DNA of 64,000 nucleotides, from the UHGV virus genome UHGV-0018629; one strand, given 5' to 3'. The DNA is from a virus. A program made the translations under genes and the position numbers. Shown piece by piece: positions 5,231 through 53,372 of the stretch; within the stretch, counting starts at the first letter, position 1, and every line of letters starts with the position of its first letter. Under the pieces are notes generated by a model that saw nothing but the letters and a program-made list of their open reading frames with translations, did no database searches and was not told the origin of the DNA.

Positions 5231-5811
5231 ATTCCGATTACGAAAAACTGTGGACGAGTAATACCACCAATGCAGCATTTACTTTTACAGCAATGTTGCG
5301 CAGTTTCAATATGAATGTCGTAAATCTTATCCATATCAGGAGATTTAACGGGCTCATCAATTATATACAAAATTCGCGAAAGCGATAAACCTCTGAACTT
5401 GCTACCTCTATTACCAATAAAACTGCGTATAGAATCAGTAAATAAACGAAAACGTATATCATCATTAGAATAACGCGAAAATTCCTTTTTAATGTTATTT
5501 GCAGAAATTTTAGCGTAAGCTGAAGTATTAGAAAGAACAATAACTGTTCCGCCATCATACAACCAATTAGCAGCAAAGTTAGTTACTGCAGTTGATTTAC
5601 CGGATTGACGTCCACCATCTAGTCGAAGTGTGCAATACTGTTTGAGCAAGTCTTCAAATGGCGGGATATATTCGTTTTTACAAATTTCTTCTACTCTAGC
5701 GTCAGAATGGTGTGTAAAAGCATTCATCAGGGATAGATAAGGACCAGTTAAAAATGTTCTCATTTTATTCTCTCTAAATTTGGGCCATTCCGTGGCGCAT
5801 GAATTGTCCAT
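5224..5811 (-). CDS. P-loop NTPase-like protein
   Basis: 195 aa; Walker A GGRQSGKST and Walker B-like ILYIIDEP; sits where denV lies in T4. Confidence 0.5.
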   Translation of the reverse strand: MDNSCATEWPKFRENKMRTFLTGPYLSLMNAFTHHSDARVEEICKNEYIPPFEDLLKQYCTLRLDGGRQSGKSTAVTNFAANWLYDGGTVIVLSNTSAYAKISANNIKKEFSRYSNDDIRFRLFTDSIRSFIGNRGSKFRGLSLSRILYIIDEPVKSPDMDKIYDIHIETAQHCCKSKCCIGGITRPQFFVIGMQ

Positions 5812-5831
5812 TTCTGTATTTACCCATTACC
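5798..5831. repeat. 34-bp direct repeat copy 1 (catgaattgtccatttctgtatttacccattacc)
   Basis: 32/34 identical to 6446..6479; overlaps start codon of P-loop gene. Confidence 0.8.
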
Positions 5832-5916
5832 GCACTTGGGCTCGACCTTATTACAGGTTGGCGGGAATCCCTCATAGAATCATGAGGTCCAGCTTGTTCC
5901 CATATTTCTTATTTGC

Positions 5917-6390
5917 TTACTTGAATGATTTGACGTACTGAATAGAACCTTTACTATTTACAAAGGCAATTTTACCATTTTTGTTATACATGGTAGCAGT
6001 ACGCTGATAGCCATAAGTTTGTTTACCAGATTGATAACCAACTAATGCGAAATTATCTTCGCCCATTTTATTCTGTTTAGCGCGGATGCGTTCATGACCA
6101 TGCGCCATAAGAACCTTAGCATCACCAGTTGCGATGGATCTACGAGTTTTTTCATCTTCAACTGTATTAACAAAGTCGTCAAATGAATCAAATTTAGCAT
6201 GGGATTTATTATACAGTTTTCCGTCTACTGCATAATTATATCCTTGTACGTCCATCTCAACTTCTGTACCATCATCCAATACAGCAGTGATCTTTTGACC
6301 TTTTTTAAATTTCAAAAGATCAGTAAAAGATTCAGCAATAATTTGAGAATTAATAGCTGCTTCAGTAATAAATTCTTGATATGTTTTCAT
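5917..6390 (-). CDS. Internal protein with capsid-targeting sequence (ipII position)
   Basis: 157 aa; N-terminus MKTYQEFITE|AA matches the CTS/gp21-cleavage pattern of T4 internal proteins. Confidence 0.65.
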   Translation of the reverse strand: MKTYQEFITEAAINSQIIAESFTDLLKFKKGQKITAVLDDGTEVEMDVQGYNYAVDGKLYNKSHAKFDSFDDFVNTVEDEKTRRSIATGDAKVLMAHGHERIRAKQNKMGEDNFALVGYQSGKQTYGYQRTATMYNKNGKIAFVNSKGSIQYVKSFK

Positions 6391-6445
6391 GTATATCCTT
6401 TAAATGTAAATAGTTTTATTCTTTAAGTTTTGGACAATTCGCACA

Positions 6446-6479
6446 CATGAATTGTCCGTTTCTATATTTACCCATTACC
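6446..6479. repeat. 34-bp direct repeat copy 2
   Basis: 32/34 identical to 5798..5831; adjacent perfect 9-bp inverted repeat ggacaattc/gaattgtcc. Confidence 0.8.
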
Positions 6480-6498
6480 AGGTTCGAACTCGGCTTTA

Positions 6499-7080
6499 TT
6501 AAGAATTACCGCGGGCTGCATTAGCAACGGCGTAAGCGTACTGAACATTAGCGTCTTTAAACGTACCTTTAGAGGTATCTATTTCTGCCTTAAAGCCGCC
6601 TTTAGTCATAACATCGGCAAATTCTTTACGGAAAGCCATTGCATCAAGACCTTTCCATGATGATTTATGCTTGGCAAATTCAAGACCAGCATAGTTGACA
6701 GCCTTAGCTAATTTATTATCAATAACCCATTTACCAGCTTTAGGCACAAACTTCGGGCCTTTTTGTTTAGAGAACAGTTTTAAATTCCAGCGACGAAGAT
6801 CACTGTCGGCTTTAACAAAAGCTGCATCTAAGTTACTAGCAACAACATCTTCAATATGGGCAAATTTAAGTCCGTCAACTTCAATATTTAGATCGTTACG
6901 CCAGCGAAGTCCTTCCCATGCGAAGGCTTTAAAGTCAGAAGCCTTTGTAGCTAAGTACCGTTCAATAGGAGCTGTTTTAGGGTCAAAGCCGTTTCCCGAT
7001 CGATAGGTCCACTCATCTTTATTAATGCCTTTGGCCTTTACTACAGAAGCTTCAGCAATAAATTCTTGATATGTTTTCAT
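6499..7080 (-). CDS. ipIII: Internal protein III
   Basis: 193 aa; MKTYQEFIAE|A capsid-targeting N-terminus; position between e and ipII-like gene. Confidence 0.75.
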   Translation of the reverse strand: MKTYQEFIAEASVVKAKGINKDEWTYRSGNGFDPKTAPIERYLATKASDFKAFAWEGLRWRNDLNIEVDGLKFAHIEDVVASNLDAAFVKADSDLRRWNLKLFSKQKGPKFVPKAGKWVIDNKLAKAVNYAGLEFAKHKSSWKGLDAMAFRKEFADVMTKGGFKAEIDTSKGTFKDANVQYAYAVANAARGNS

Positions 7081-7107
7081 GTGTTTCCTTTAAATATTTT
7101 AATTAGT

Positions 7108-9942: not shown

Positions 9943-9960
9943 ATAGGGGCCGAAGCCCCT
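9943..9960 (-). other. Stable UUCG-tetraloop hairpin (ggggc-ttcg-gcccc on minus strand) downstream of the coiled-coil gene
   Basis: Sequence aggggccgaagcccct; identical hairpin recurs at 51931..51948 after hoc. Confidence 0.5.
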
Positions 9961-9965
9961 TATCA

Positions 9966-10559
9966 TTATTTCAGAGAATTAATGTATTCCTGAACATCGG
10001 CAGAGGTAGTTTCAACCCCGGAAATATTACCGTTAAAGGTTTCAACTCGAGCAAGGGTATCTTCAATATCAACCTTAGTCAGCGCTGCAATTTCAACTAC
10101 ATCATCGGCAGTACTAATTCCAAGGGCATTTGCTGCACGAGTTTCACGGATATATTCCAATTTAACTGCAAGTTCTTGGCGAGCATCATCTAACTCAACT
10201 ACTTTCTTAGCAATTTCAATTCGCATTTCAGCATAACCGTCAGCCTTAGTAGTCAACTGCTCAGCTGTTCGACGATATAGTAAACCGAGTTTAGCATGCA
10301 TTGTTACATCTTGACCTTCGGAAAGAAGTTTACGAATTTCACGCTCTTTTGATTCAGCCTGTCGATTCTTTTCGACAATAAGTTCACGAATACGTTTTTC
10401 TTCATTAATAGATTTAACAGAAGCAGTTTTTAGATCTTTAATTTTATCAAGTAGTTTTGCTGCAGCAGCAGTATACTGTTCTTCAACAGATAGATTTTTA
10501 GCCATAGCAGAACCAAGTTTAGTGCGAATAAACTCAACAATTTTCTTCAGTGTGTTCAT
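9966..10559 (-). CDS. Coiled-coil protein, possibly PspA/IM30-like
   Basis: 197 aa, long heptad-rich helices with charged repeats; family assignment is from architecture only. Confidence 0.4.
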
Positions 10560-10952: not shown

Positions 10953-11007
10953 AATGTTCTCCTCAAGTTACAGGCTCATAATATCTCAATCATGAGCCTG
11001 TGTAAAC

Positions 11008-11325
11008 TTATTTCATATTATTGAAATATTCTTCTGCGATTTCGTCGTTATCATGGTAAACTTTAGAAGACAGTTTAACATAACCTTCAGCTGTGAACAT
11101 GTTAATCACAACCTTTACAGTATACCACTGACCATCTTCATTACCCATTACTGCGTAAGTTTCAAACATCGGATGGTCAGGACCGATAACTTTAATATCA
11201 TTCACTGTACGACCGAAATCTTCTGAAACACATTTCATAAAGAAGTTGAACAGTTCGCCGTAATTATCCATTTCATTCTCCAAGTTGTTTTTCTGTATCA
11301 GTAGTTGATAGTTGTATAGTACCAT
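11008..11325 (-). CDS. Hypothetical protein
   Basis: 105 aa ORF; likely real start at internal Met MDNYGELF. Confidence 0.4.
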   Translation of the reverse strand: MVLYNYQLLIQKNNLENEMDNYGELFNFFMKCVSEDFGRTVNDIKVIGPDHPMFETYAVMGNEDGQWYTVKVVINMFTAEGYVKLSSKVYHDNDEIAEEYFNNMK

Positions 11326-11441
11326 GGAAGAACAGTGATGTAAACAGTTTTGTGAAAAAATTTTTAGGGAATTCTGGGGCAGGGAGGGGCAATTAAAAGG
11401 TAGGATAATATATTATAAAGGGTATAAACTAAATGATGCCT

Positions 11442-11471
11442 AGAGAGGCCCAGAAAGGCCCAGAAAGGCCT
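11442..11471. repeat. Three tandem 10-bp GC-rich units (tagagaggcc cagaaaggcc cagaaaggcc)
   Basis: Direct tandem repeat in intergenic DNA, next to G-rich tract gggcagggaggggc at 11378..11391. Confidence 0.7.
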
Positions 11472-11475
11472 AGAT

Positions 11476-11504
11476 ACCAAAAAGCCCTATCATTTAGATA
11501 GGGA
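11476..11504 (-). terminator. Intrinsic terminator (stem ccctatc/gataggg followed by T-run on minus strand)
   Basis: 8 nt downstream of the stop of 11512..12075. Confidence 0.65.
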
Positions 11505-11511
11505 TTTAAAA

Positions 11512-12075
11512 TTATTTATCTAGTTTAGTTATTATAGCTTCTGCAGCAGCTTTTAGCTTAGATGCGGTGTTAATACGATTTTTAATTTCAGTATACGCAT
11601 CGCCAAGAACATCAAGGCTATCAGAATAAACACTTACACTATTGCGTTCGCTATTTGAAATAGAACCTTTAGTTTTGCGGTCAAAATCGGTGTACACGTC
11701 TTGAAGATCGCGGGCTGCCTTCTTTGCATCATCCAATGCATCAAGAGCTTTATTCAAAGCATTAACGTATTTTTTAGTGTCGAACATATTCTTAGAAATT
11801 TTAACAGGTGCGCGTTCAGGAGTAGCTAACACAGATTTAGGAACCTGAGCGCCAGATGCCAATTTCTTAGAAATTTTGAAAAATGCTTTATTGAATTTAT
11901 TTTCTTGACTCATTGTAAAAGAACTATTATCGATGTTGTACATTTCAATAGCTTTAGCTTTCCACTTAAGAAAATCGCCGCGGTCTTTTGGGTCCAATTG
12001 GAAGAATACTTTAGTAAGATCTGCTTCAGATGGTAATTTTGCTGCTTCGGTTAAAAATTCGGCATAAGTTTTCAT
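11512..12075 (-). CDS. Internal-protein-like gene with capsid-targeting sequence
   Basis: 187 aa; N-terminus MKTYAEFLTE|AA matches the CTS/cleavage pattern; Lys/Ala-rich body. Confidence 0.55.
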   Translation of the reverse strand: MKTYAEFLTEAAKLPSEADLTKVFFQLDPKDRGDFLKWKAKAIEMYNIDNSSFTMSQENKFNKAFFKISKKLASGAQVPKSVLATPERAPVKISKNMFDTKKYVNALNKALDALDDAKKAARDLQDVYTDFDRKTKGSISNSERNSVSVYSDSLDVLGDAYTEIKNRINTASKLKAAAEAIITKLDK

Positions 12076-12162
12076 TTAAAATCCTTGAAATAATTTATCG
12101 GTTGGTTATTAATTATTTATTACTTTGTTACTATCCGTAGCAGCATTCTCTATGTGATTCAA

Positions 12163-12196
12163 ACTAAAAAGCCCCAACCTTTTGGTCGGGGCTAAG
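12163..12196 (-). terminator. Intrinsic terminator, repeat copy A (agccccgacc-aaaa-ggttggggc + TTTTT on minus strand)
   Basis: Identical 34-bp copy at 12718..12751. Confidence 0.75.
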
Positions 12197-12200
12197 AATG

Positions 12201-12674
12201 TTATTTGATTTGTTTAGCAGACCAAATGCGGTCTTTAATAATTTTTTGGATGTCTTCAACATACTCAAGAGAGTGAACATGTGGATTATCTTTGAAACTA
12301 TAAGCACGGGCTAACTTTTGGCCTTCGGTCTTAATTATCAAAAGTTCTTTAAGAATTGCTTCATATTTAGAGATAATTCCTTTAACGATATTTTTTTCTT
12401 GTGCGGCTTTAGGATCTGCTTTAGGAGCAGGTTTACCTGAAGCCTTTGCAAAAGCAGCGCCAGTAGCAACTAGACTTTTCCAGGCCATACTAACCGCATT
12501 TCCTGTAAATCCTTCTGCTTTCATGTCGCGAGCAAATTGGAATCGTGATTCATCAGAAGCATCTTTATAAGAATATTTACCCGCTGCAATGGCTGCTTTT
12601 GCAACAGCTTGAATTTCGGTGCTAGATGCTTCATTTAACACCGCTTCATTTAAAAATTGAGTATATGATTTCAT
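12201..12674 (-). CDS. Internal-protein-like gene with capsid-targeting sequence
   Basis: 157 aa; N-terminus MKSYTQFLNE|AV; flanked by identical terminator repeats. Confidence 0.55.
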   Translation of the reverse strand: MKSYTQFLNEAVLNEASSTEIQAVAKAAIAAGKYSYKDASDESRFQFARDMKAEGFTGNAVSMAWKSLVATGAAFAKASGKPAPKADPKAAQEKNIVKGIISKYEAILKELLIIKTEGQKLARAYSFKDNPHVHSLEYVEDIQKIIKDRIWSAKQIK

Positions 12675-12717
12675 CTTATTTCCTGTTTTAATTCGTGGCT
12701 TTAATATACTTATTTAT

Positions 12718-12751
12718 ACTAAAAAGCCCCAACCTTTTGGTCGGGGCTAAG
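12718..12751 (-). terminator. Intrinsic terminator, repeat copy B (34/34 identical to 12163..12196)
   Basis: Perfect direct repeat. Confidence 0.75.
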
Positions 12752-13035
12752 CCTTGCGGCAACCTTGTCGGGGTTCCACCTGCTAAGGCAAGTGTTTGTA
12801 CGAAACGCCGGGATTCGAACCCGGTTATTAAGCAGTTGACGCTACTCAATATTTTTAAAAGGCCATATCTCGACCATATCCGAACGTTCCGTCGAAAACG
12901 CTACTCAGCTTACGGCAAAGATATTTCCTCGAATCGATAATTCGGTGCGCCGTTTCTGCTGTGATATAAGGGGGCATCAATAAACACAAAGATTATTAAC
13001 GCAATTCCTTACTCAGGGAACATCAGTCCGACGAC
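12752..13035 (-). ncRNA. Candidate structured non-coding region with tRNA T-arm-like hairpin (ccggg-ttcgaat-cccgg)
   Basis: No ORF above about 22 codons on the minus strand; GC content visibly above phage background; no full cloverleaf could be folded by eye. Confidence 0.3.
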
Positions 13036-13590
13036 TTACCGGTAGCGACCCGGTTTCTCATTTGGTATTTCAAATTGTGTAGATTTAGTATCTAATTTTT
13101 TAACTACGGAACTTATGTCATGAAAGAAAAACCATTCGCCATTTATATGGTCCTGATTATAAATGCTGTGCATATATTTTTCAAGTTCTACTGCATCCTG
13201 GGAATATCTAAATGATACTATTTTAAAACTTTTAAACGGTGAAAATGTATTTGCTGTTATAACTCTAACATCGGGTTCTATACTTCTTCCTATTTTATAA
13301 TAATTAGGATTTGTAGTATCTACCATTATGTATACGAAAGCCTGTCGATAGCTTTTTTCTATATCAAATTCATCTTTAAATTTCAAAAGATTTAGGGCGG
13401 CAGTCCTACAAAATACTTTCCATTTTGACAAACGTTTGGCTTCAGTCATAGAAAAGAATTTTTTCTTATCTGTTATTTTAAGAAAAGCAACATTTTCAAT
13501 TAGTTCTTGTGTTATTTCAAAATTACCATGGTATATTAATCCAGCTTTTATAGCCAAATTAATTTGGTCCCAGTCTACATCACTTCTCAT
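13036..13590 (-). CDS. T5orf172/MUG113-like (GIY-YIG-related) domain protein
   Basis: 184 aa; C-terminal half VYIMVDTTNPNYYKIGRS...R...LEKYMH...GEWFF fits the T5orf172 pattern. Confidence 0.5.
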   Translation of the reverse strand: MRSDVDWDQINLAIKAGLIYHGNFEITQELIENVAFLKITDKKKFFSMTEAKRLSKWKVFCRTAALNLLKFKDEFDIEKSYRQAFVYIMVDTTNPNYYKIGRSIEPDVRVITANTFSPFKSFKIVSFRYSQDAVELEKYMHSIYNQDHINGEWFFFHDISSVVKKLDTKSTQFEIPNEKPGRYR

Positions 13591-13611
13591 AATATTATTC
13601 TCTCAATAATT

Positions 13612-13688
13612 TGGCCAGGGTGAAAGGATTCTAACCTTTAACCTGCGGTTTAGAGGACCGCTACTCTATACAATTGAGTTACACCCCG
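13612..13688 (-). tRNA. tRNA-Arg (anticodon UCU), CCA encoded
   Basis: Hand-folded cloverleaf: acceptor cggggtg/caccctg, anticodon arm gcggt-cctctaa-accgc; atypical D- and T-loops. Confidence 0.55.
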
Positions 13689-13813
13689 TAATTAGTTCAC
13701 AGCAATACCTACTCCAACAATCAAGATGTCTTCACACGAAATTAAGAGAAGAGTGATCAGTTCAACCCTATAATCGCGTCAAGTAGATATTAATGTGACA
13801 GTTGTCACAAATT
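13689..13813 (-). ncRNA. Candidate small stable RNA between tRNA-Arg and tRNA-Asn
   Basis: 125-nt non-coding spacer in a co-transcribed tRNA cluster; contains hairpin tgtgac/gtcaca; analogous to T4 species 1/2 RNAs by position only. Confidence 0.25.
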
Positions 13814-13888
13814 TGGCGGACGTGATAGGATTCGAACCTATAACCAATCGCTTAACAGGCGATCGCTCTGCCATTGAGCTACACATCC
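13814..13888 (-). tRNA. tRNA-Asn (anticodon GUU), CCA encoded
   Basis: Cloverleaf: acceptor ggatgtg/cacgtcc, anticodon loop ctgttaa, T-loop ttcgaat. Confidence 0.75.
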
Positions 13889-13892
13889 AAAT

Positions 13893-13979
13893 TGGTGGGG
13901 AGTGATGGAGTCGAACCACCCGAGTCGCAATGACAATGGATTTACAGTCCACACCGCTACCTCTACGGGATAACTCCCC
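13893..13979 (-). tRNA. tRNA-Tyr (anticodon GUA), type II with long variable arm, CCA encoded
   Basis: Acceptor ggggagt/actcccc, anticodon loop ctgtaaa. Confidence 0.75.
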
Positions 13980-13992
13980 TTAATTCTTAATT

Positions 13993-14067
13993 TGGTGGCC
14001 CTGGGTGGAATTGAACCACCATCTGGCGATTATGAGTCGCTTGCTTGAACCTTCCAGCTACAGGGCC
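13993..14067 (-). tRNA. tRNA with CAU anticodon (Met, or Ile if lysidine-modified as in T4)
   Basis: Acceptor ggccctg/cagggcc, anticodon loop ctcataa. Confidence 0.75.
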
Positions 14068-14068
14068 T

Positions 14069-14144
14069 TGGTGCTGATTGACGGAATCGAACCGCCGACC
14101 TTCTCATTACAAGTGAGTTGCTCTACCTACTGAGCTAAATCAGC
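14069..14144 (-). tRNA. tRNA-Thr (anticodon UGU)
   Basis: Acceptor gctgatt/aatcagc, anticodon loop cttgtaa, T-loop ttcgatt. Confidence 0.75.
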
Positions 14145-14149
14145 AAAAC

Positions 14150-14239
14150 TGGCGGAGGCGATAGGATTTGAACCTATGAGTCACCGGAGCGACTGCCGGT
14201 TTTCAAGACCGGTGCATTAAACCACTCTGCCACGCCTCC
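14150..14239 (-). tRNA. tRNA-Ser (anticodon UGA), type II
   Basis: Acceptor ggaggcg/cgcctcc, anticodon arm ccggt-cttgaaa-accgg, long variable arm. Confidence 0.75.
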
Positions 14240-14245
14240 AAATAT

Positions 14246-14896
14246 TTATATATTGTTAATTTGATTTAGAATTCTTTTTGCTTGAGTATGACTTACGCCA
14301 ATATGCTTAGCATATTTAGATAATTCGCCACGCTTAGAAAAATCATATAATTTAGAAATTTCTATTCTTCTTTTTCTTTCATCCGCAGAAACTTTTGCTT
14401 CGTTTGCTTTTGCTATTTTACGTTTAGCTTCTTGAGAATGAGTTTTACCAGCAAAGCCATTCTTCATTAATCCATTTGAAGACCATCCTTTTAATTTTCC
14501 GTTAGAATGTGCCTTTTTAACACCCAATGAAATTAATTCACGTTGCTGATCTGTCATAGGATAATTATTTATATGATCCCATCCACCTTCACCTCCAAGT
14601 TTTAAATTATACACATCTGGTCTATTTAAAAACTCTTCTGTGACAATATTTTTCTCGGCTTCAAGCATAGATTCTTTATCATCAAAATACTCTAATATTT
14701 CTTTAGAAAAATTTTCTATACCATATTTATCTTGGGCTCTTTTTAATAATTTACCAGAACCCATATATCCATCATCTAAATTTTCGGTAGAATGCACACC
14801 AATATAAATTTTATTATTAATTTTATTTGTTATTTTATAAAGATAAAAATGCATATCAGTCCCTAATAAAGAACTGAGCGTCTCACGACGAGTCAT
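14246..14896 (-). CDS. segB: GIY-YIG homing endonuclease (SegB-like) inside the tRNA cluster
   Basis: 216 aa; N-terminal GIY-YIG motif YLYKITNKINNKIYIGVHST, basic C-terminal DNA-binding region; lies between tRNA-Gly and tRNA-Ser. Confidence 0.75.
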   Translation of the reverse strand: MTRRETLSSLLGTDMHFYLYKITNKINNKIYIGVHSTENLDDGYMGSGKLLKRAQDKYGIENFSKEILEYFDDKESMLEAEKNIVTEEFLNRPDVYNLKLGGEGGWDHINNYPMTDQQRELISLGVKKAHSNGKLKGWSSNGLMKNGFAGKTHSQEAKRKIAKANEAKVSADERKRRIEISKLYDFSKRGELSKYAKHIGVSHTQAKRILNQINNI

Positions 14897-14900
14897 AAAT

Positions 14901-14974
<74 letters not shown>

Positions 14975-14979
14975 AAATT

Positions 14980-15066
14980 TGGTGCGAGAAGTGGGACTCG
15001 AACCCACAAGGAAATCATTCCGCAGCATTTTAAGTGCTGTGCCTTTACCAATTTGACCATTCTCGC
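14980..15066 (-). tRNA. tRNA-Leu (anticodon UAA), type II
   Basis: Acceptor gcgagaa/ttctcgc, anticodon arm cagca-cttaaaa-tgctg. Confidence 0.75.
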
Positions 15067-15067
15067 G

Positions 15068-15140
15068 CTGGGAATAAAGGACTCGAACCTTTGCATCCTG
15101 GAATCAAAATCCAGTGCCTTACCAACTTGGCTAATTCCCA
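15068..15140 (-). tRNA. tRNA-Gln (anticodon UUG), no encoded CCA, abuts tRNA-Leu
   Basis: Acceptor tgggaat/attccca, anticodon arm ctgga-ttttgat-tccag; one nt separates it from tRNA-Leu. Confidence 0.7.
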
Positions 15141-15208
15141 ATTATTAACAAAGGCTCTCAAACAAGAACCCTTGATGATAGAGGGTATTAATCAGTGCGA
15201 TATGAGTT

Positions 15209-15235
15209 AATAATAACAAATAATTCTTAAAGCAA
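15209..15235 (-). promoter_or_regulatory. MotA-dependent middle-promoter-like element upstream of the tRNA cluster
   Basis: Minus strand atttGCTTTAag (MotA box) followed 12 nt later by tattat (-10), about 60 nt upstream of tRNA-Gln. Confidence 0.4.
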
Positions 15236-15381
15236 ATTAAACATTTTAACGGTCGGCAAAACAATTTCTTCTTCTATATAAGAGTATTTAACACTCTCAA
15301 CTACACGCAAAAAATCATAATCATAATACTCAGAAGCATTACCTAAAATATTAATAAGTCCTTCAAGCACTTTATTACCAT

Positions 15382-15750
15382 TCACAAAAATAAATCAAAT
15401 ACACGTTCTTCGTCTTCTTCGGATTTATTACCAAGGTCAACTTCTATGTCAAAGACCTTTTTAATGAATTCTGGATAAAGTTGTTCTGAGAACAGTCCTT
15501 CAACCAAGTATTCATAAATAAAAAGCGATTGCTCGCTGAACAAGCCATTACCACAATAACGTTCAGCTTTAGTACTAGAATGTCTGCTTTTAAACTTCTT
15601 TAAAAGATATTGGAATTGTAAGATTTCATGCTCTTCTACGCCAAACAGTGTTTTGGTTTTATAGTTGTCACCATCATTTTCCCAGGTAGTGACATCAATT
15701 ACGTAACCCTGCGGAATTGTAGTACCCAAACAAATATTCATTTTCACCAC
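15382..15750 (-). CDS. Hypothetical protein
   Basis: 122 aa ORF between tRNA cluster and ipI-position gene. Confidence 0.4.
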   Translation of the reverse strand: MVKMNICLGTTIPQGYVIDVTTWENDGDNYKTKTLFGVEEHEILQFQYLLKKFKSRHSSTKAERYCGNGLFSEQSLFIYEYLVEGLFSEQLYPEFIKKVFDIEVDLGNKSEEDEERVFDLFL

Positions 15751-16040
15751 GCTGCATTAATGTAAGTATATTTAATACATTCAAGATCCAAAGGATTCTT
15801 GAAAATATCATATTCAAGAGGACCTTTTTCTGTTTCAATAAAGAAATCAAAATTTACTGTATTAAATTTACGGTCTTCCTTTACTAATTTAACTTGAGAA
15901 GATGAACGGTCAATGTAAACCTTTTCAACTTCAAAATATGTTAAAATACCATAATCATCAATCAAGGATTTAGCTGCTTCTTGATCATATTTATATCCAT
16001 TTTCAATGGATGATACTTTCGCATAAAGAATCATTATCAA
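15744..16040 (-). CDS. Hypothetical protein
   Basis: 98 aa ORF, overlapping stop/start with neighbours. Confidence 0.4.
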   Translation of the reverse strand: MIMILYAKVSSIENGYKYDQEAAKSLIDDYGILTYFEVEKVYIDRSSSQVKLVKEDRKFNTVNFDFFIETEKGPLEYDIFKNPLDLECIKYTYINAAW

Positions 16041-16643: not shown

Positions 16644-16687
16644 ACTATTACCCTACTGTAAACAACTTTGTGAAATTATTTTAAATC
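16628..16687 (-). promoter_or_regulatory. Early-promoter-like cassette: 11-bp-stem hairpin plus conserved 30-mer with GTTTAC box
   Basis: Perfect hairpin agggtaatagt-atcac-actattaccct; 30-mer gtaaacaactttgtgaaattattttaaatc identical to 16988..17017. Confidence 0.5.
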
Positions 16688-16933
16688 TTCTAATCGTTTC
16701 TTCATCTTAGAACCATTTTTAGCAATTTCTCCTGCATCGGAGCATAATGCTAAAAGCGCTTTAACTTTAGTTTGATCTCCTTTAAAAGACGAAGGATCGA
16801 CTGCAGCAGCAAGTTCTTTAATACGAGAGAAAAGACGCTCAGCTTCAGCTAAAGCCATTCCAAGCTTTACTTCCATACCGTGGGAAGATTCAGTGATAGT
16901 AGTTTTTGTAGCAAACTCTTTGAAAGTTTTCAT
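16676..16933 (-). CDS. Internal-protein-like small protein (ipI position)
   Basis: 85 aa; N-terminus MKTFKEFATK resembles internal-protein CTS; lies between 57B and tRNAs. Confidence 0.55.
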   Translation of the reverse strand: MKTFKEFATKTTITESSHGMEVKLGMALAEAERLFSRIKELAAAVDPSSFKGDQTKVKALLALCSDAGEIAKNGSKMKKRLEDLK

Positions 16934-16953: not shown

Positions 16954-17702
<749 letters not shown>

Positions 17703-51920: not shown

Positions 51921-51948
51921 CAAAATGAAGAAAGGGGCCGAAGCCCCT
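51921..51948 (-). terminator. Terminator-like UUCG hairpin after hoc (identical to hairpin at 9943..9960)
   Basis: aggggccgaagcccct; U-rich tract follows on minus strand. Confidence 0.5.
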
Positions 51949-51953
51949 TACGA

Positions 51954-53372
51954 TTATGGATAAGTATAGATGATACCAGTTTCTAAAGCAGTTTTATGAA
52001 TGATGTATCCATTACGTGATTCTTGAACATCAACTTCTGGATAGTCTTTCATCATCTTCTGAAGAGTGTAACGATGCAGGTAGTATTTACTATCTGGATC
52101 TTCAGTTTTCCAATCTTTACCTTCTTCGGTCATTTTTTGGATTTCATCCATAACCCACCAACCGCACCAGATGTAAGCTGAAGTACGATGTGGAAGAGGA
52201 TGGACATAAGGCAATTCACCTTCCGGTTCTGGAGCAACTTTATTAGTTACTTGAACTTGACCAGTCGCTTTAACTGTTTTACTATCATAGTCAGTTGCAG
52301 TAACAGTTGCAGTAACTTCAATAGTTTGACTTCCAATAGATGATGTATCAACTGTATACACATTAGTCGATCCTTCTACAGGAGAAGAATCTTTCTTCCA
52401 TGAATAAGTAATTTGCGCTGCTTCAGGTGCGCCAGTGACATTAGCTGTAAATGTAGCCAAAGCATCTTGCTGAACGTTAATAGAAGGAGGAGTCAATGTA
52501 ACCTGTGGATTCATTGTTTTCTTATTAACTGTTAATGATACTTCATTAGAAGTAACTTCCTTTTCATTATAATTTTCAGCAGTTACTTGCGCTACGCATT
52601 TAATTCTTTTTACTCCACTTGTAGTTGGAGTATAGTTAAATGTAGAGTTAGTTTCTCCACCAACTTGAGAATCATCTACATACCATTTATATGTAGCAGA
52701 CGCTCCATCAGGTTGAGAAGCTAAGGCAGCAGTAAATTGAACTGGGGTTCCAATTACTCCAGCTGAAGGACTAGCAGGAGTTACTGCCAATGTAGTTGTC
52801 TGTGTCTTTTTATTAACAGTCAGTGACACTTCATTAGAAGTAACTTCCTTTGCATCATAATTTGTCGCGGTTACTTGAGCTACACACTTAATTGTTTTAA
52901 CTCCGCTTGTAGAAGGAGTGTAATTGAATGTAGCAGAAGTCGCTTCGTCTACAGGAGAACCGTCAACGTACCATTGATACGTAGCAGATGCACCTGATGG
53001 CTGCGAAGCTAAAGCAGCGGTAAATTTAACAGCTGTTCCAATTACTCCTGCTGGAGGACTATTGGGAGTTACGGCTAAGGTAGTCGTCTGAGTTTTATTT
53101 TTGACTGTGATAGTTGTACTAATTTCAGCTGTTTCAGCTTCAGATTCTGGAACTGTGTTTGTTGCAACTACTTTAATAGTCTTTTGACCGGCAGGTCCTT
53201 TTAATACATAACTAAAAGTTGCTTCAGCTCCATCTTGTGGAACATCATCTACACTCCAAGCATATGTAATAGTTCCACCTCCAGTTTCACCACTGGGTGC
53301 AGCAGTAAACTGCTGAGTCTGATCTATAACTCCAGTAGGTGTTTTAGGAGTTATATCAACTGTAAAAGCCAT
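51954..53372 (-). CDS. hoc: Highly immunogenic outer capsid protein Hoc with an extra tandem Ig-like domain
   Basis: 472 aa; repeated Ig-like domains incl. two near-identical about 97-aa units (KKTQTTTLAVTP...SNEVSLTVN); conserved C-terminal capsid-binding region; synteny. Confidence 0.85.
   Translation of the reverse strand: MAFTVDITPKTPTGVIDQTQQFTAAPSGETGGGTITYAWSVDDVPQDGAEATFSYVLKGPAGQKTIKVVATNTVPESEAETAEISTTITVKNKTQTTTLAVTPNSPPAGVIGTAVKFTAALASQPSGASATYQWYVDGSPVDEATSATFNYTPSTSGVKTIKCVAQVTATNYDAKEVTSNEVSLTVNKKTQTTTLAVTPASPSAGVIGTPVQFTAALASQPDGASATYKWYVDDSQVGGETNSTFNYTPTTSGVKRIKCVAQVTAENYNEKEVTSNEVSLTVNKKTMNPQVTLTPPSINVQQDALATFTANVTGAPEAAQITYSWKKDSSPVEGSTNVYTVDTSSIGSQTIEVTATVTATDYDSKTVKATGQVQVTNKVAPEPEGELPYVHPLPHRTSAYIWCGWWVMDEIQKMTEEGKDWKTEDPDSKYYLHRYTLQKMMKDYPEVDVQESRNGYIIHKTALETGIIYTYP

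Follow-up and report, generated by a model that had tools for sequence, protein, structure and literature searches.

Accessory genes of T-even phages are already known to be shuffled through repeated regulatory sequences, and the locus analyzed here is a further instance of this principle. Blocks made of a promoter and a stem-loop flank the genes of the internal proteins (IPs) and may mediate their shuffling (Repoila et al. 1994, EMBO J 13:4181, as related in PMC2839356 and PMC4122927). They were described at "the two highly variable IP loci" (PMC2839356, PMC4122927), and a 2025 study still refers to "the two Ip loci" (PMC12373910). IP genes are small non-essential ORFs that have only an N-terminal capsid-targeting leader of ~11 aa in common; conserved regulatory blocks lie upstream and downstream of them, and their number and identity vary among T-even phages. 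In the ipI and ipIII loci these blocks combine an early promoter with an AT-rich stem-loop. In PeSL shuffling (Arbiol 2010, PMC2839356; Comeau 2014, PMC4122927), single accessory genes lie between repeats of a promoter/terminator motif, one of which persists where close relatives differ by an indel, and the modules are transcriptionally insulated. PeSLs are composites of ~100 bp built on sigma70-like early promoters, and dozens of copies are scattered over the genome. T4 also deletes or amplifies segments located between microhomologies of 6-10 bp, loss of ipIII included (Srikant et al. 2022, PMC9391042). In these laboratory events the direct repeats arose by chance; they flank the segment that is lost or gained, and one of them is left at the junction. 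Lambdoid morons are single genes with their own promoter and terminator located between resident genes, and are usually expressed from the prophage. Morons are not known to recombine through their regulatory sequences.

The window referred to below is the whole stretch of DNA that was analyzed, 64 kb from a Tequatrovirus (T4-like phage), and 731 phage records match the region of interest. All genes around the repeats are located on the minus strand (Table 1). In the order of transcription, nine tRNA genes are followed by an ORF with a MUG113/T5orf172 domain, by the homologues of rnaD and rnaC, which form the 3' end of the tRNA operon, and by repeat copy 1 as the operon terminator; downstream are found TATAAATA, gene A, repeat copy 2, gene B, a third terminator and the homologue of e.8. 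The rnaD/rnaC homologues (12799..13061) were identified by a local alignment to the annotated T4 record, in which 355 of 383 bases are identical. A search of Rfam in E-value mode over positions 11000-16000 returned tRNAs only, and no family for rnaC, rnaD or the hairpin.

Table 1. Features of the window that are discussed in the text.
Feature	Position	Strand	Remarks
ipII-slot gene	5917-6390		leader-bearing ORF
ipIII	6499-7080		leader-bearing ORF
Third terminator	11470..11509	-	stem 11503-11485; differs from both repeat copies
Gene B	11512..12075	-	187-aa ORF, second internal-protein-like gene; independent indel unit of 687 bp
Candidate late promoter of gene B	12114..12121	-	AATAAATA, 7/8 match to the consensus, 38 nt before the ATG
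Repeat copy 2	12163..12196	-	stem 12193-12170; identical to copy 1; predicted terminator of gene A
Gene A	12201..12674	-	157-aa ORF with ATG start; internal-protein-like
Predicted late promoter of gene A	12711..12718	-	exact T4 late-promoter consensus TATAAATA
Repeat copy 1	12718..12751	-	stem 12748-12725, U-run 12724-12720
rnaC homologue	about 12799-12937	-	small stable RNA, by homology with T4
rnaD homologue	about 12944-13061	-	small stable RNA, by homology with T4
MUG113/T5orf172-domain ORF	13036-13590	-	184 aa, between rnaD and tRNA-Arg; likely homing-endonuclease relative
GIY-YIG-like ORF	14246-14896	-	216 aa, N-terminal motifs; between tRNA-Ser and tRNA-Gly
ipI-slot gene	16676-16933		85 aa, leader-bearing ORF

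The 34-mer ACTAAAAAGCCCCAACCTTTTGGTCGGGGCTAAG was found exactly twice in the window, on either side of gene A. A sequence-only reading of this DNA had reported the two copies as identical (34/34) and as flanking an ORF, and both statements were confirmed; the ORF is a real one. Further copies were sought in the 64-kb window with up to 3 mismatches and none was found, and the looser pattern AGCCCC-N12-GGGGCT picked out the same two sites only. A repeat arising by chance was rejected, as 100 dinucleotide-preserving shuffles gave 0 matches to the 34-mer. The similarity between the two sites reaches 40 nt at 95% identity (12157-12196 vs 12712-12751).

In minus-strand RNA, each copy forms the hairpin AGCCCCGACC-AAAA-GGUUGGGGCU, with a stem of 10 pairs and a loop of 4 nt, and UUUUU comes directly after it (fold centroid energy -19.5 kcal/mol, z = -4.3). 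The length of the stem and the T-run had been correctly described from the letters; the term "GC stem" was slightly generous, three of the ten pairs not being G-C (7 G-C, 2 A-U and 1 G.U). In a scan with a terminator consensus, the two copies were the top two matches. Fold and scan thus agree, and support the prediction that both copies are intrinsic (rho-independent) terminators. The third terminator has in common with the repeat only GGGCUUUUU plus the downstream flank GGTATCTAG.

Copy 1 is located 48 nt past the 3' end of rnaC and copy 2 begins 5 nt beyond the stop codon of gene A. The hairpin of copy 1 is also present after rnaC in T4, T2, RB7, PST, Mosigvirus and Gaprivervirus, and the same hairpin was found at this place in 21 relatives. 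[quoted passage not shown] Copy 1 is the conserved terminator of the tRNA/rnaD/rnaC operon rather than a private part of a cassette. This terminator is single in T4, whereas it is duplicated here with the duplicate apparently serving a late protein-coding gene. Across relatives, 93.9% of the cells of the stem alignment are paired, and pair 7-26 is seen as C-G, G-C and U-A, which corresponds to two independent double-sided changes. The stem variants comprise C-G to U-A, C-G to G-C, GA to AG opposite UU, and C to U giving U.G; the variants of Mosigvirus and Gaprivervirus have an internal mismatch of 2 nt. Since stem changes keep pairing, the hairpin is under selection as a structure too. These changes and the conserved site past rnaC point in the same direction as the fold and the consensus scan, and the sequence-only reading of the hairpins as terminators is supported; we infer that they also terminate transcription in vivo.

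A scan of IMG/VR for the terminator returned only 5 loci. In one of them (L014, positions 1-80 of contig 3300032282_001984, 5.2 kb), two adjacent hairpins are present, one of which has the same stem and loop (GCCCCGACC GAAA GGTTGGGGC). L014 had no match in the phage database; it is an unrelated viral contig with another context, and its hairpin probably reflects convergence on a good terminator.

The repeat itself carries no promoter. A promoter of the late type adjoins one of the two copies and is missing at the other: TATAAATA abuts repeat copy 1 with an overlap of 1 nt and lies 36 nt before the ATG of gene A. It is kept in every A-containing Tequatrovirus examined, and the record of phage fPS-90 independently annotates the same element as "predicted late promoter". 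For gene B, the candidate AATAAATA is conserved in B-containing relatives; its assignment is weak, 217 sites in the window matching the consensus equally well.

We compared the locus among relatives using the conserved flanks, from the intergenic sequence next to e.8 to the rnaC trailer, as anchors. Four states were found, with identical outer flanks (...GGCCTAGATACC|AAAAAGCCC... and ...GGGGCTAAG|CCTTGCGG...). In the empty state (T4, T2, RB7 and PST), one terminator is present and 76 nt separate the anchors. The A-only state (teqdroes, phage 107, EPIMRB01, fD1 and two IMG/VR contigs) is longer by 555 nt and has two terminator copies, the B-only state (FL23, Shfl2 and G4498) is longer by 687 nt, and the A+B state (the window, fPS-90 and two IMG/VR contigs) carries both units. 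In every case the difference between states starts and stops inside terminator sequence. The A unit is bounded by a repeat of 28-34 nt and the B unit by the shorter common AAAAAGCCC. BLAST summary counts gave 512 records with A, 165 with B, about 128 with A+B and 389 with the joined short states. Roughly 17% of phages are empty, 51% have A only, 7% B only and 25% A+B, these frequencies being estimates from the BLAST summary counts and from an even sample of 60 rows, which agree, and not exact genome-wide counts. The rnaC terminator is conserved from genus to genus, and synteny is lost directly past its T-run, where the flank of e.8, the late promoter with A, the leader region of B or unrelated genes (VR7, WFL6982) are found. 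In Salmonella phage GRNsp7, the B slot is occupied by an unrelated membrane-protein gene with other terminators.

The sequence-only reading had proposed a portable cassette and had pointed to comparative genomics of the region between e and the tRNA genes. The comparison bears out presence or absence of a 555-bp unit with breakpoints in the repeat. It does not bear out mobility among sites or exchange of cargo: the A unit was never seen at another locus among the relatives compared, and no different gene was found between two identical terminators in these relatives, only alleles of A, including an N-terminal mosaic in L011 and GRNsp7. The cargo is always A or nothing, and "portable" therefore refers to gain or loss at a single site when genomes are compared and does not imply a transposable element.

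Combined, these results are best read as a terminator-bounded single-gene cassette that is gained and lost by recombination between the repeats, a reading that we consider likely. The 34-bp repeat would be the duplicated terminator of the T4-type tRNA/rnaD/rnaC operon, and the two copies bound a 555-bp module in which TATAAATA is the predicted late promoter and a ribosome-binding site precedes the 157-aa ORF with its capsid-targeting leader; a terminator completes the module. Copy 1 would halt the early/middle transcription of the tRNA operon before the late gene A, and copy 2 would halt the late transcript of gene A itself. With two terminators, gene A would be transcriptionally insulated, so that its insertion or loss would leave the neighbouring genes undisturbed. 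In evolution the repeats would be the boundaries of the module: recombination between the copies, in one genome or between co-infecting genomes, would delete the unit and leave one terminator, as in T4, and the reverse event would add it. Gene B with its own terminator would behave likewise as a second module through the shorter GGGCUUUUU homology.

The layout resembles PeSL modules in the bracketing of a single accessory gene by a repeated regulatory motif, in the single motif left by indels between close relatives and in the insulation of the module. It differs from them as the repeated element is a 34-bp terminator only, present in two copies with a late promoter at one. As in the microhomology events of T4, direct repeats flank the segment that varies and one is left at the junction; here, in contrast with the short chance repeats of laboratory lines, they are 34 bp long, functional as far as predicted, conserved, and associated with a natural polymorphism. 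Like a lambdoid moron, gene A is a single gene with its own predicted promoter and terminator among resident genes, but this phage is strictly lytic and gene A is apparently late.

A breakpoint in the repeat cannot by itself tell recombination at this place from replacement of the whole segment through longer flanking homology and subsequent selection for intact terminators. In a rival account, the repeats have no role in recombination: they would be old terminators kept nearly identical only by selection for efficient termination, with whole segments swapped between co-infecting phages through the flanks, e.8 on one side and rnaC and the tRNA genes on the other. The strong conservation of the rnaC terminator in three genera accords with this account, as do the Tequatrovirus flanks, which at 93-97% identity are ample for ordinary homologous exchange, and purifying selection on a good terminator could partly explain the identity of the copies. 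Moreover, A is already found with two related terminators in Mosigvirus, so that the architecture is old. From this distribution, the presence of A is probably ancestral and the T4 state probably a deletion; B, which is at least 95% identical everywhere and restricted to Tequatrovirus, looks recent. Against the rival account, the positions outside the stem (the loop, CTAAG and ACT) are also identical in the two copies of the window. Within a lineage, moreover, the copies share their variants of loop and stem, while lineages differ from one another, a sign of conversion between the copies. The two copies agree in having GACC in Tequatrovirus and TTCC in Mosigvirus APCEc01; the loops are both AAAA in the window and both GAAA in fPS-90, with one of each in phage 107. 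Among 22 loci, an AAAA loop in the rnaC-proximal copy is found in the window only, as if this copy had been converted by the distal one. The empty state, furthermore, has exactly one copy, as a deletion from repeat to repeat would leave, and deletions between far shorter repeats are documented in T4. The lineage-shared variants, the single-copy empty state and the microhomology deletions of T4 favour ongoing exchange between the copies, and we regard the account in which the terminators are kept alike by selection only as unlikely.

The tRNA region also contains candidate homing endonucleases, and the cassette could mainly hitch-hike on their gene conversion (SegB-type GIY-YIG or T5orf172/MUG113), the repeats being incidental. 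The GIY-YIG-like ORF and the MUG113/T5orf172 ORF (Table 1) are 0.3-2 kb away, and in the tRNA region of T2 about 1.25 kb is co-converted when SegB homes (PMC2330249). The states of A and B, however, are not tied to nearby endonuclease genes. A is found with segB in fPS-90, with the MUG113 ORF in the window, and in teqdroes and phage 107 with no endonuclease ORF annotated beside tRNA-Arg (in teqdroes, a homing-endonuclease CDS is located further upstream); of the phages in the empty state, T4 and PST have segB and RB7 and T2 lack it. Co-conversion alone would not set breakpoints in the terminator. We judge this explanation very unlikely.

Nothing is found in T4 at the position of the MUG113/T5orf172 ORF, and many Tequatroviruses have a 116-aa ORF there instead. 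The last ~26 nt of this ORF overlap the 5' end of the rnaD homologue, and ORF148c of VR7 (Gaprivervirus) is nearly identical to it, which suggests transfer between genera. The position of the GIY-YIG-like ORF differs from the segB site of T4. The tRNA set also differs from that of T4, with Asn, Tyr and Met present and Ile and Pro absent. In phage BW-1, a convergent SNP in rnaD was reported in all lines adapted to E. coli ECOR34 (PMC12685909, 2025). BW-1 is about 96% identical to the window and carries B, and the match coverage indicates that it carries A too; downstream, the genes that come next are the two IP-like ones.

Lastly, the hairpins might be sites of active, structure- or sequence-specific recombination, integron- or attC-like or through cruciform cleavage by endonuclease VII, with excision of mini-circles. 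The repeat is a perfect palindromic hairpin, and PeSL-flanked genes of RB49 form encapsidated mini-circles (PMC2839356). Against such a process, no recombinase accompanies the unit (gene A, the sole ORF between the repeats, has no Pfam, NCBIfam or PDB match), the same hairpin in L014 has an unrelated context, and generic T4 recombination suffices for the data, so that we give it hardly any credence. Gain and loss of the cassette by recombination between the two terminators remains the reading that we prefer.

Genes A and B resemble IP genes in their N-termini. MKSYTQFLNEA in A and MKTYAEFLTEA in B match the capsid-targeting leader of T4 Ip2/Ip3 (MKTYQEFIAEA), and a regular expression for the leader retrieved 5 ORFs only from the six-frame translation of the 64-kb window, the other three being the ipIII, ipII-slot and ipI-slot genes, which PHROGs annotates as "internal virion/head protein". 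A and B belong to phrog_2280, of "unknown function", and every database name found for them is "hypothetical protein". In T4, gp21 prohead protease cleaves at the end of the leader following the rule (L/I)xE, a motif that occurs in A (FLNE|A) and B (FLTE|A) as a sequence match only. The description of gene A as internal-protein-like is thus borne out by its N-terminal motif and LxE site as well as by the company of three recognised IP genes. In codons 1-15 of gene A (12630-12674), a short duplication (FLNEA VLNEA) creates two candidate prohead-protease sites, the second (LNE|A) four residues later; a single leader site only is found in Mosigvirus and in some Tequatrovirus alleles of A.

As with Ip1-3, the proteins encoded by A and B probably enter the capsid, undergo trimming by the prohead protease and reach the host together with the injected DNA. 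In phage fD1, g140, which is 98% identical to A, was listed as particle-associated by LC-MS/MS; as the same list includes lysozyme, DenV and NudE, expression of g140 is shown and its packaging only suggested. [quoted passage not shown]

Searches of A and B against Pfam, NCBIfam and PDB sequences gave nothing above noise. An AlphaFold2 model of A from an alignment of 10 sequences is all-helical (pLDDT 72) and shows, with moderate confidence, an N-domain of four helices that a linker joins to a helical hairpin; when this model was compared with the PDB by Foldseek, no structure matched at E below 0.9. An origin of A and B by tandem gene duplication was unsupported (hhalign probability 9.9%, likeness in the leader only). 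At 90% identity the A family, a narrow one, falls into 13 clusters; it comprises mosaic alleles with a diverged N-terminal half and a nearly identical C-terminal half. In some Klebsiella and Yersinia phages, the N-domain of A is joined to a different C-terminal part. In Klebsiella phage KpV477 (L010, 2495-3100), the homologue of the N-domain is followed by an in-frame stop and then by a different C-terminal coding stretch; since KP01 and fHe-Yen9-01 encode the N-domain and the C-terminal part as one protein of 177-178 aa, the KpV477 homologue may be a pseudogene or reflect a sequencing error.

The unit thus shares with IP cassettes small leader-bearing genes and repeated regulatory sequences. 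It differs from them in location, as A and B lie between e.8 and rnaC, outside the denV-e and 57B-trna.4 loci, and in its elements, a GC-rich intrinsic terminator and a late promoter in place of an early promoter and an AT-rich stem-loop. Both classical IP loci are also present in the window (5917-7080 and 16676-16933). What is modestly new is therefore a third IP-like locus where the literature has two, and a bounding element that consists of a terminator plus a late promoter. A and B are unnamed in the annotations and papers that were accessible; Repoila 1994 or Comeau 2007 may mention them.

A more far-reaching proposal is that the e.8-rnaC interval is a third, unrecognised IP locus in which A (~500 phages) and B (~165) encode new injected anti-defence proteins, the terminator acting as a recombination handle by which phage populations turn the genes on and off; we put it forward tentatively, as rather less probable than its negation. 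T4 Ip1, Ip2 and Ip3 each disarm a different GmrSD-type restriction enzyme (PMC12373910), and if the proposal is true A and B could, for example, inhibit further variants of this type. The IP repertoire is thought to shape host range; as leader-bearing "hypothetical" proteins of hundreds of Tequatroviruses of the therapeutic type, A and B are candidate injected counter-defence factors. The four-state polymorphism also offers a simple natural system for measuring the rate at which accessory genes are gained and lost through regulatory repeats. As the principle is already established, the value of these results is incremental and not conceptual.

Other repeats of the window were recorded in the same analysis. 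When direct repeats were ranked, four of the top five families (D2, D3, D5 and D6) were found to flank IP genes or to mark their 5' ends; D2, D5 and D6 reveal the architecture of IP cassettes at the two classical loci. The ipI-slot gene is bracketed by a direct repeat of 35 nt (16657-16691 and 16987-17021, 97% identical) that holds an early-promoter-like element, a layout in which a gene again lies between regulatory repeats with a different element. In the denV-e locus, the 3' flanks of the IP genes are repeated (5798-5853 and 6446-6501, 80% identical), as are the 5' leader and RBS regions (6359-6405 and 7049-7095, 94% identical); with 70% identity, the leader of gene B (12044-12090) is a further member of the latter family. 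In the spacer between e.8 and the third terminator (about 11440-11470), a 10-nt unit is present in tandem (GGCCCAGAAA GGCCCAGAAA GGCC), whereas relatives have a single copy of it. Another GC-rich hairpin, AGGGGCCGAAGCCCCT plus 9 nt, is found at 9945-9969 and 51933-51957 (92% identical) and looks like another reused terminator. Finally, at 52515-53090 a unit of 288 nt is duplicated in tandem (78% identical), presumably as a repeated domain inside a structural gene.
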